Below, piece after piece: positions 9,291-10,040 of a stretch of DNA of 64,000 nucleotides. The DNA comes from Schmidtea polychroa (Eukaryota): contig CM097888.1 of NCBI GenBank assembly GCA_044892525.1, positions 2,294,001-2,358,000 on the forward strand. Reading direction: 5' to 3'. The position numbers were made by a program, and so were the translations under genes. The notes beneath the pieces were generated by a model. It had not been told where the DNA came from, ran no database searches, and was given only the letters and a program-made list of their open reading frames with translations. Within the stretch, counting starts at the first letter, position 1; each line of letters starts with the position of its first letter.

Positions 9291-10040
9291 ATGATACCAA
9301 CTACCAGACCCGCGTTACGTCCGTGCTTCTCTTGCGCGGATAAAAACGCCATTATCAAAGATCTACAAACCCAAATCGGGCGTTATAAAAGGAAGATAGA
9401 CGAGTTGGAAGGGACATGGTTTAGTCCCGCTCGGATGAAGGAGACCCAGAAGAAGCTCTACCGGAGCGAGCACTGTCGAGATGCTTTGATCGCTGAAAGT
9501 CGCTCCCAGAGGAGCTTGATCAAGGAGCAGTCCGAAGCACTGCATAAAGTTTATCTGCAGGCAACTACCACCCGAAAGATAGTAAAAATCCCGATCAAAG
9601 ACGCCGACGAACTCTTTCCGGCGCACCATGATATTTCGTCAAAATTGTCGTCTCCTGCCAAAAAGTCCTGCAAGGAATGCGTAGAGACCCAGCTCTCACC
9701 CAAACAACCAGATATCATTTTCACGGGTACAAGTCAGGTATCCCCGGTGCTCGCCTCTACGTCTAAGGCGATTCCGACCAACACAGCAACATCCAAACCG
9801 AAACGTCGGCAAATGTCCAGGGCTGAACGAAAAAGAAAACAACGAGAACGGATGGTTGCCAAGTCCAATATACCTCTAACGAACCTCGTAGATGTAGTCA
9901 ACGTTCCTTCGGTAACAGTAGTCCCCACATCTGAAGTGACTGGGCGAATTATCTCTGCCACCGGAGTCACTTGGGAAGAGAACGCTTCCGAGTTTTTCGA
10001 CCTCGAAGAGCTGTTAGCCGCCACTGAGTGGGAGAAATGA
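9291..10040 (+). CDS. ORF-B of element copy A: 249 aa, CxxC + coiled coil + basic NLS-like segment, unknown function
   Basis: Intact ATG-TGA ORF. 53 of 83 N-terminal residues identical to 46340-47107 by manual alignment. Confidence 0.8.
   Translation: MIPTTRPALRPCFSCADKNAIIKDLQTQIGRYKRKIDELEGTWFSPARMKETQKKLYRSEHCRDALIAESRSQRSLIKEQSEALHKVYLQATTTRKIVKIPIKDADELFPAHHDISSKLSSPAKKSCKECVETQLSPKQPDIIFTGTSQVSPVLASTSKAIPTNTATSKPKRRQMSRAERKRKQRERMVAKSNIPLTNLVDVVNVPSVTVVPTSEVTGRIISATGVTWEENASEFFDLEELLAATEWEK

Follow-up and report, generated by a model that had tools for sequence, protein, structure and literature searches.

A selected open reading frame in the long terminal repeats of Burro-type giant elements of Schmidtea polychroa

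Coding sequence within LTRs is known from HIV nef and MMTV sag; both genes are situated in U3, ahead of the transcription start, and are expressed from the 3' LTR. Solo LTRs are generally regarded as gene-less promoters. Rev, Rex and Rec are small proteins made from spliced RNA, and they have a basic helix and a leucine-rich nuclear export signal, oligomerize on a structured response element and serve RNA export. The ORF1 proteins of L2/CR1 LINEs are characterized by a CxxC motif or leucine zipper and by an esterase or RRM. Rev of complex retroviruses is summarized in PMC10309623, which also reports on CERV of the Caenorhabditis elegans element Cer1 (Ty3/gypsy), an accessory protein made from a spliced mRNA and needed for the export of unspliced RNA. 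In planarians, the layout of the giant gypsy-like LTR elements Burro and GYPSM1 has been described (PMC6431247), Burro has been reported as a target of SMEDWI-2 (PMC8532177), and, as cited in PMC13465017, Burro1 has been reported to sustain the stem cells of planarians.

LTR open reading frames in Burro-type elements

The window, that is, the whole stretch of 64,000 nucleotides analyzed here, contains two related LTR ORFs on the plus strand, one of family A coding for 249 aa (9291-10040) and one of family B coding for 255 aa (46340-47107). The two proteins are 37% identical over 254 columns (BLASTP, E 6e-50), with 53 of 83 residues identical between residues 6 and 88 when counted by hand from the BLASTP alignment. 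The positions and the count given in a preliminary description of this DNA were thus borne out, and the Pro/Ser/Thr linker, the Arg/Lys segment and the acidic end that it listed are all present, as judged from the net charge per 25 aa. Both ORFs are located in solo LTRs, which were recognized by their TG...CA ends, target duplication, identity to paired LTRs and the lack of a PBS behind them. The family A solo LTR (6478-10600, plus strand; 4,123 bp, TG...CA) is flanked by the target duplication GTTA (6474-6477 and 10601-10604) and aligns to both LTRs of full elements. The family B solo LTR (41498-47642, plus strand) has the target duplication GCTA and is split by a Tc1/mariner-type DNA transposon (43731-45718, plus strand) with terminal inverted repeats, a TA duplication and a DDE_3 ORF (44609-45382). 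The preliminary description regarded the surrounding DNA as decayed, which does not agree with our results: the LTR ends TG...CA are intact, 4-bp target duplications are present, and the flanks match sister copies at 92-97% identity across kilobases and are therefore non-coding LTR, not decayed genes.

In the 781-Mb genome, a first look gave over 6,000 candidates per N-terminus, far more than chance would give; these numbers do not represent copy numbers, and the best 150 that were scored showed identities of 86-100% for A and 87-100% for B. Same-strand ORF pairs 26-30 kb apart were a common pattern among the matches. The full A and B elements have TG...CA LTR ends, 4-bp target duplications and a PBS behind the 5' LTR, and the ORF is present in both LTRs. 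The paired LTRs of A are direct repeats, 99.9-100% identical in 4/4 cases. Among the five B pairs, two were 100% identical and one 98.7%, one was 99.7% identical with a deletion, and one was a longer duplication. LTR length is 3.85-4.2 kb in A and B and about 5.5 kb in a third ORF-bearing family, D, and the two ORF copies are 26-34 kb apart.

Between the A LTRs lie a RING ORF, gag (retrotrans_gag, CCHC), a fusion-glycoprotein env, PR, RT, RH and IN, as well as ankyrin repeats, a TRAF ORF and further ORFs, and the order in the B element was obtained by tblastn to A at 91-98% identity. In D, too, gag is followed by env and then by PR-RT-RH-IN and ankyrin. The features that these elements share with Burro and GYPSM1 as described in PMC6431247, where the total length is near 30 kb, are a size of 26-34 kb, multi-kb LTRs, a CCHC gag, an env placed in frame after gag and ahead of the protease, RT-RH-IN, ankyrin and MATH/TRAF. 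Matched by this layout, the A and B units are Burro-type giant Ty3/gypsy elements. The MATH/TRAF domain was present in the Burro-type elements scanned here (A and D). For BIR (IAP), no match was found among 13 A-type ORFs scanned, and likewise none in B; the Burro1 features described in that paper, a BIR-RING ORF and MATH inside the polyprotein, occurred only in family D. Since these features of Burro1 proper are confined to D, families A and B of the window are sister families and not Burro1. BCL2-, SUMO- and dUTPase-like regions gave no Pfam match at E<=0.05 in A and D, and the Burro paper used HHpred. The Burro section of PMC6431247 names no LTR ORF, LTR splicing or gag-only non-autonomous family. 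No description of an ORF in Burro LTRs was found in the literature searched, and the figure of that section as well as the figures or supplements of Grohme 2018 and Lee 2026 may mark some.

Several other features were observed in the window. Four minus-strand ORFs (303, 538, 173 and 118 aa) at 2547-6258 have His/Cys finger-like motifs and a strong strand skew, and Pfam gave a weak Zn-finger match only. Two tandem R2-like non-LTR copies at 29087-35570 are 97-98% identical, with C2H2, RT and an endonuclease-like end, and both have split frames. A small Tc1/mariner-type element at 26956-28486 has 22-nt inverted ends that recur internally, together with part of a DDE_3 sequence. At 56105-56785, 61312-62118 and 41140-41406 there are three host-like ORFs or ORF fragments, related to one another, of a secreted-looking protein family, for which the one member scanned had no Pfam match.

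Promoter, splice signals and a splice fossil

A reverse CCAAT box and a TATA box are common to 7/7 A and B LTRs compared, at +355-370 in A and +504-518 in B. In the window they are located at 6806-6810 and 6832-6839 (plus strand) in the A LTR, both being conserved in A, B and C LTRs, and the B promoter, first exon and mini-intron occupy 41982-42101 (plus strand; reverse CCAAT, TATA at 42001-42008). About 30 nt past the TATA box begins a direct repeat of 16-29 nt, with GT behind copy 1 and AG ending copy 2. This repeat with its GT was found in 20/22 A and B promoters, the 22 being what is left of 31 rows after removal of 4 of family C, 4 non-promoter matches and 1 overlap. The putative first exon of the window A copy, with a predicted start site, covers about 25 nt (6862-6886, plus strand). 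In sister A copies the first exon is followed by a GT..AG intron of about 50 nt, the end of which repeats the exon, and exactly this GT..AG stretch is missing from the window A copy, a loss that could stem from slippage between the repeats. The B copy retains a 46-nt GT..AG mini-intron with the repeated exon end (42056-42101, plus strand). Copies 1 and 2 of the repeat are alike within an element and different between subfamilies; the same concerted pattern was seen at 42030-42101 and in sister LTRs, where the exon-1 repeat stands at the end of a 45-55-nt intron. In the simplest account copy 1 would be the first exon, and first-strand DNA made off the spliced 5' end would anneal to the unspliced 3' repeat and overwrite copy 2 in each cycle. 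The exon-1 repeat is probably a trace left when the first strand was transferred off a spliced 5' end, and would record in the sequence both the RNA start and the first-strand jump.

Further downstream in the A LTR, a second donor-like GTAAG (7076-7081, plus strand) is found at the same place in 5/5 aligned A LTRs. It is followed by a conserved non-coding block (7310-7480, plus strand) that is 82-89% identical to the LTR of family C, which has no ORF. A second coding exon in this block was rejected on account of off-frame indels and the lack of a common ORF. A PBS-like sequence lies within the block at 7350-7370 and is present in family C too.

The ORF of the window A copy is preceded by a pyrimidine tract and AG acceptor (9265-9285, plus strand) 5 nt before the ATG, and that of the B copy by an acceptor AG (46338-46339, plus strand) directly before the ATG. 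An AG at 0 or 5 nt before the ATG was present at 65/65 loci, despite upstream DNA that cannot be aligned. Genome-wide, the exact A-type start pattern had 103 matches with G at the last base of the acceptor and 0 with A, C or T. A candidate poly(A) signal, AATAAA (10170-10175, plus strand), is found 130 nt past the stop codon. The hexamer stands downstream of the ORF in 5/5 A LTRs and in those D copies that were inspected, and B has variant hexamers at the aligned position. Probes for the spliced junction of A or B gave 0 matches. In four runs presumed to be RNA, there were contigs over the ORF and over upstream LTR parts, with no GT..AG joint listed in them, and one 816-nt contig (run X6, likewise guessed to be RNA) starts from 9291 and is 92% alike; none of these contigs was counted as evidence. 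A location of the ORF in U3 was rejected, as it follows the promoter and first exon at a distance that ranges from 2.4 kb (A) to 4 kb (D).

The IAP-bearing family D was picked up by the ORF profile as having a distant homologue in its LTRs (HHalign, probability 96.5%, E 8.6e-10, 81 columns). By itself the D frame lacks an ATG and begins behind AG|TG in 32/35 rows, and the D first exon ends in A|GT, at about 85 nt from the TATA box on its downstream side, in 7/7 intact D LTRs. In one D element (L193/L194, C1:78.92-78.95 Mb), the 3.95 kb from donor to acceptor has been cut out exactly in both LTRs, and the excision creates an in-frame ATG. These LTRs are 1.56 kb long and 99.8% identical, and the element has its own target duplication and PBS. 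A genome search for the D junction pattern found matches only at these two LTRs. The deletion, read from genomic sequence, is best described as a DNA fossil of a spliced RNA, and it represents one event in one family. Of all the evidence, this exact excision speaks most strongly for an ORF that is expressed by splicing from the LTR promoter and is located in the transcribed R/U5 part. In addition, the D LTR contains a second ORF of about 122 aa upstream of the homologue (L190, reverse complement, 4450-4830; L185; L197), with its own acceptor before the ATG in most copies, an omega of 0.31 and a C-terminal RKRGRPRK that we take to be AT-hook-like; no homologue of it was found in the search. The window itself holds a 3' end fragment of a D LTR at 1977-2178, which includes the hairpin block, is 84-86% identical to D copies and is cut off upstream.

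Taken together, the LTR almost certainly contains a selected accessory gene in its transcribed part, and the product very probably acts in trans from a spliced mRNA. Transcription would begin some 30 nt past the TATA box, and A and B would use the same splice from exon 1 to the ORF as D. Polyadenylation would follow the ORF, so that a lone LTR would be a complete transcription unit; the AATAAA may end R or may be a second site in U5.

Selection, protein architecture and RNA hairpins

To estimate selection, natural copies (15 of A and 10 of B) were analyzed under a GY codon model; they were picked for diversity among frames of 244-256 aa, with broken copies left out. Omega for residues 8-113, the N-terminal helical hairpin, was 0.06 in A and 0.06 in B, compared with 0.37-0.42 in the linker, 0.13-0.17 in the basic helix and tail (A and B in both cases) and 0.16-0.17 overall. 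The family D homologue had an omega of 0.23. In an example pair, 48/70 synonymous and 11/248 non-synonymous sites had changed, which agrees with the codon model. These values are far below 1, and with no match to a known family they are in line with the earlier proposal of a selected protein gene within an LTR unit, a unit that can be identified as a solo LTR of Burro-type elements. That proposal had also called the frames intact, which is true of the lineages and not of single copies: a stop, frameshift or altered tail was found in 9/30 A-type and 11/30 B-type top matches, and single copies decay after insertion. Host domestication is not supported, as 20/60 top copies are broken.

The LTR ORF has diverged much more between families than the enzymes have. 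With one element compared per family, identity between A and B was 98% for RT-RH, 91% for env, 91% for gag, 66% for TRAF, 41% for RING and 37% for the LTR ORF. Between-family pN was 0.34 for the LTR ORF, 0.38 for the RING accessory ORF and 0.016 for RT. Within A, the elements L031-L034 and L035-L038 showed synonymous differences of 0.15 in TRAF, 0.26 in RT and 0.53 in the LTR ORF, and this mosaic divergence suggests recombination between subfamilies.

AlphaFold2 predicted for the A protein a helical hairpin (13-40/46-98, pLDDT 81-95) with its turn at EGTWFSP, a basic helix at 177-190 and a weak tail helix, the rest being disordered; the CxxC is at 12-15. The acidic tail of A has a net charge of -7 in the last 25 aa and an LEELL motif, with IDEML in B. 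The basic helix, which mixes Lys and Arg, is kept in A, B and D. The D protein has kept the hairpin and the basic helix, its linker is about 55 residues shorter, and it is without the CxxC, the HC pair and the acidic tail. The CxxC, by which the preliminary description named the protein, is present in A and B and absent from D; it is thus a lineage-specific addition of A/B and not part of the core. Six consensus patterns for a leucine-rich export signal were applied to the two window proteins, and none was common to A and B.

Homology searches returned almost nothing. The LTR ORF protein had no match in Pfam or among PDB sequences, 0/637 candidates matched in a set of 5.8 billion with a single-protein query, and the ORF alignment gave 0 matches in a 50%-cluster library; a known gag or ORF1 family was thus not found in Pfam, PDB sequences or this library. 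No homologue was found in viral and metagenome contigs, and ESM Atlas returned generic coiled coils only, with low recognition. The sole outside match was P0001, a D-type protein encoded by an ENA contig 638 bp in length. Foldseek against PDB and viral structures gave nothing at E<=0.001, and the best VIA-align Z of 10.3 headed a flat, uninformative list of unrelated helical hairpins. No known DNA-binding fold was found, and no likeness to Rev, Rex, Rec or CERV in sequence or fold. By sequence, the LTR ORF represents an undescribed protein family without a match in the libraries searched.

Two covarying RNA hairpins lie near the LTR 3' end (10378-10473, plus strand; families A, B, C and D). 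Across 12 natural copies of the A, B, C and D 3' block, both have internal loops. Hairpin 2 had 96% of cells paired, with both sides changed in 10/13 pairs, and hairpin 1 had 89% paired, with both sides changed in 7/12 pairs, as against 26-59% in slid controls, the structure being derived from the same alignment as was scored. The hairpins had no match in Rfam. A likeness of the hairpins to ribozymes was considered and dropped.

The LTR end followed by the PBS had 567 exact matches in the genome, and the first 30 of these comprised 14 of A/B, 15 of family C and 1 C-like. All 14 A/B loci hold ORF sequence, with an open frame of at least 250 aa in 11/14. Family C (L131-L133, L135-L137, L143-L145 and L148-L150) consists of gag-only, non-autonomous elements of about 13.5 kb with LTRs of 1.55-1.65 kb that contain no ORF, 99.9% identical in 3/3 pairs. 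The promoter, the block corresponding to 7310-7480 and the 3' hairpin block are kept in C. Since C LTRs are near-identical without the ORF, recent movement does not require its presence in the LTR. At C1:77.27-77.32 Mb, five C units that share LTRs are arranged in tandem. At L140 (reverse complement, 500-3020), a C-like LTR end and PBS come first; 1.2 kb on there is an acceptor with a divergent and broken ORF copy, and then another 3' block. This arrangement may represent an additional family or an intermediate stage in the growth of the LTR.

Possible functions and comparison with known systems

For the product of the LTR ORF we favor, with hesitation, a Rev/CERV-like role in RNA processing or export. 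The promoter would feed both short spliced RNAs and a genomic RNA of more than 25 kb, and the latter would have to keep its introns and pass the poly(A) signal in the 5' LTR despite strong 5' splice sites. The fully spliced RNA would give a nuclear protein that favors genomic RNA left unspliced and read through, and the two would form a feedback switch like that of Rev or Rex. In such a switch, the predicted helical hairpin may mediate self-association, the basic helix may serve nucleic-acid binding or nuclear import, and the hairpin pair near the LTR end would be the putative target. This role fits because a likely fully spliced RNA, a probably oligomerizing hairpin and a basic helix come together, and CERV is a Ty3/gypsy precedent. 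However, a leucine-rich export pattern common to A and B is lacking, the basic helix reads equally well as an import signal, and the RNA hairpins stand some 130 nt ahead of the PBS, a region in which structures for packaging or primer annealing are to be expected, and need no partner encoded by the ORF. The acidic tail of A/B, with its hydrophobic-x-x-hydrophobic-hydrophobic pattern, and the AT-hook ORF of D point instead to transcription. The wider proposal that Burro-type LTRs are self-contained regulatory cassettes with 3-5 kb transcribed, a Rev-like switch acting via the hairpins and solo LTRs serving full-length and gag-only elements in trans is doubtful in this complete form.

A Tas/Tax/Tat-like activator of its own LTR promoter, with a hairpin for oligomerization, a basic helix for import or DNA binding and the acidic tail for activation, which in D would share the job with the AT-hook ORF neighboring the homologue, is rather unlikely. 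It would account for the acidic tail, which is kept under selection with LEELL or IDEML and may resemble viral activation domains, for production from the earliest, fully spliced RNA, and for a protein that diverges along with an unalignable LTR while RT-RH does not, but the D protein has the hairpin and basic helix without the acidic tail, and a known DNA-binding fold was not recognized. The rapid divergence between families, similar to that of the RING ORF, would also be expected of a host-facing accessory that counters PIWI/H3K9me3 silencing or acts as an adaptor for the RING/TRAF proteins, and the many host-modulating ORFs of the element and the targeting of Burro by SMEDWI-2 (PMC8532177) are in line with it. 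On the other hand, the core omega within families reveals no fast adaptive change in these averages, and no likeness to any silencing suppressor was found, so we consider such a host-facing role unlikely. The earlier suggestion of a nuclear regulator or anti-silencing factor therefore stands in its first part, as the best guess, while nothing specific to anti-silencing was found. The coiled-coil-like hairpin and basic helix, and adjoining RNA hairpins that could be a packaging signal, might suggest an RNA chaperone or coiled-coil scaffold of the particle, analogous to LINE ORF1; since a gag with CCHC knuckles is already there, no ORF1 family or structure was matched and D is without the CxxC, this is improbable. 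It is barely conceivable that the frame is kept open for an RNA or DNA reason without any protein function. Single copies do decay, and protein and mRNA were not directly observed; against this stand a conserved protein with near-saturated synonymous sites, the domain-wise omega and homology over three families.

With respect to known systems, CERV, likened here by its description, also has a helix-hairpin-helix, a basic import signal and a Cys-rich element, but it is 517 aa long, overlaps gag in the internal region, and contains, besides M and G domains, a candidate signal for export (PMC10309623). Like Rev, Rex and Rec, the LTR ORF product is small, is likely made from a spliced RNA, has a basic helix, probably oligomerizes according to the predicted structure, and has an RNA structure nearby; unlike them, it has no conserved leucine-rich export signal and its gene lies wholly within the LTR. 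In A and B the CxxC precedes a long helix, which recalls the L2/CR1 ORF1 proteins, yet the LTR ORF belongs to an LTR element, has no esterase or RRM and no Pfam or PDB match, and is without the CxxC in D, which leaves the proposed likeness to CxxC/leucine-zipper ORF1 proteins unsupported. As Burro1 is reported to support stem cells (PMC13465017), an RNA switch would be testable by RNAi in a standard model. The LTR ORF shares with nef and sag its coding within the LTR and differs from them in sitting downstream of the promoter. Each solo LTR here seems to contain a full mini-gene, from the promoter through introns and the selected ORF to a poly(A) signal, so the recombination that deletes an element would leave a likely regulator behind in many copies.
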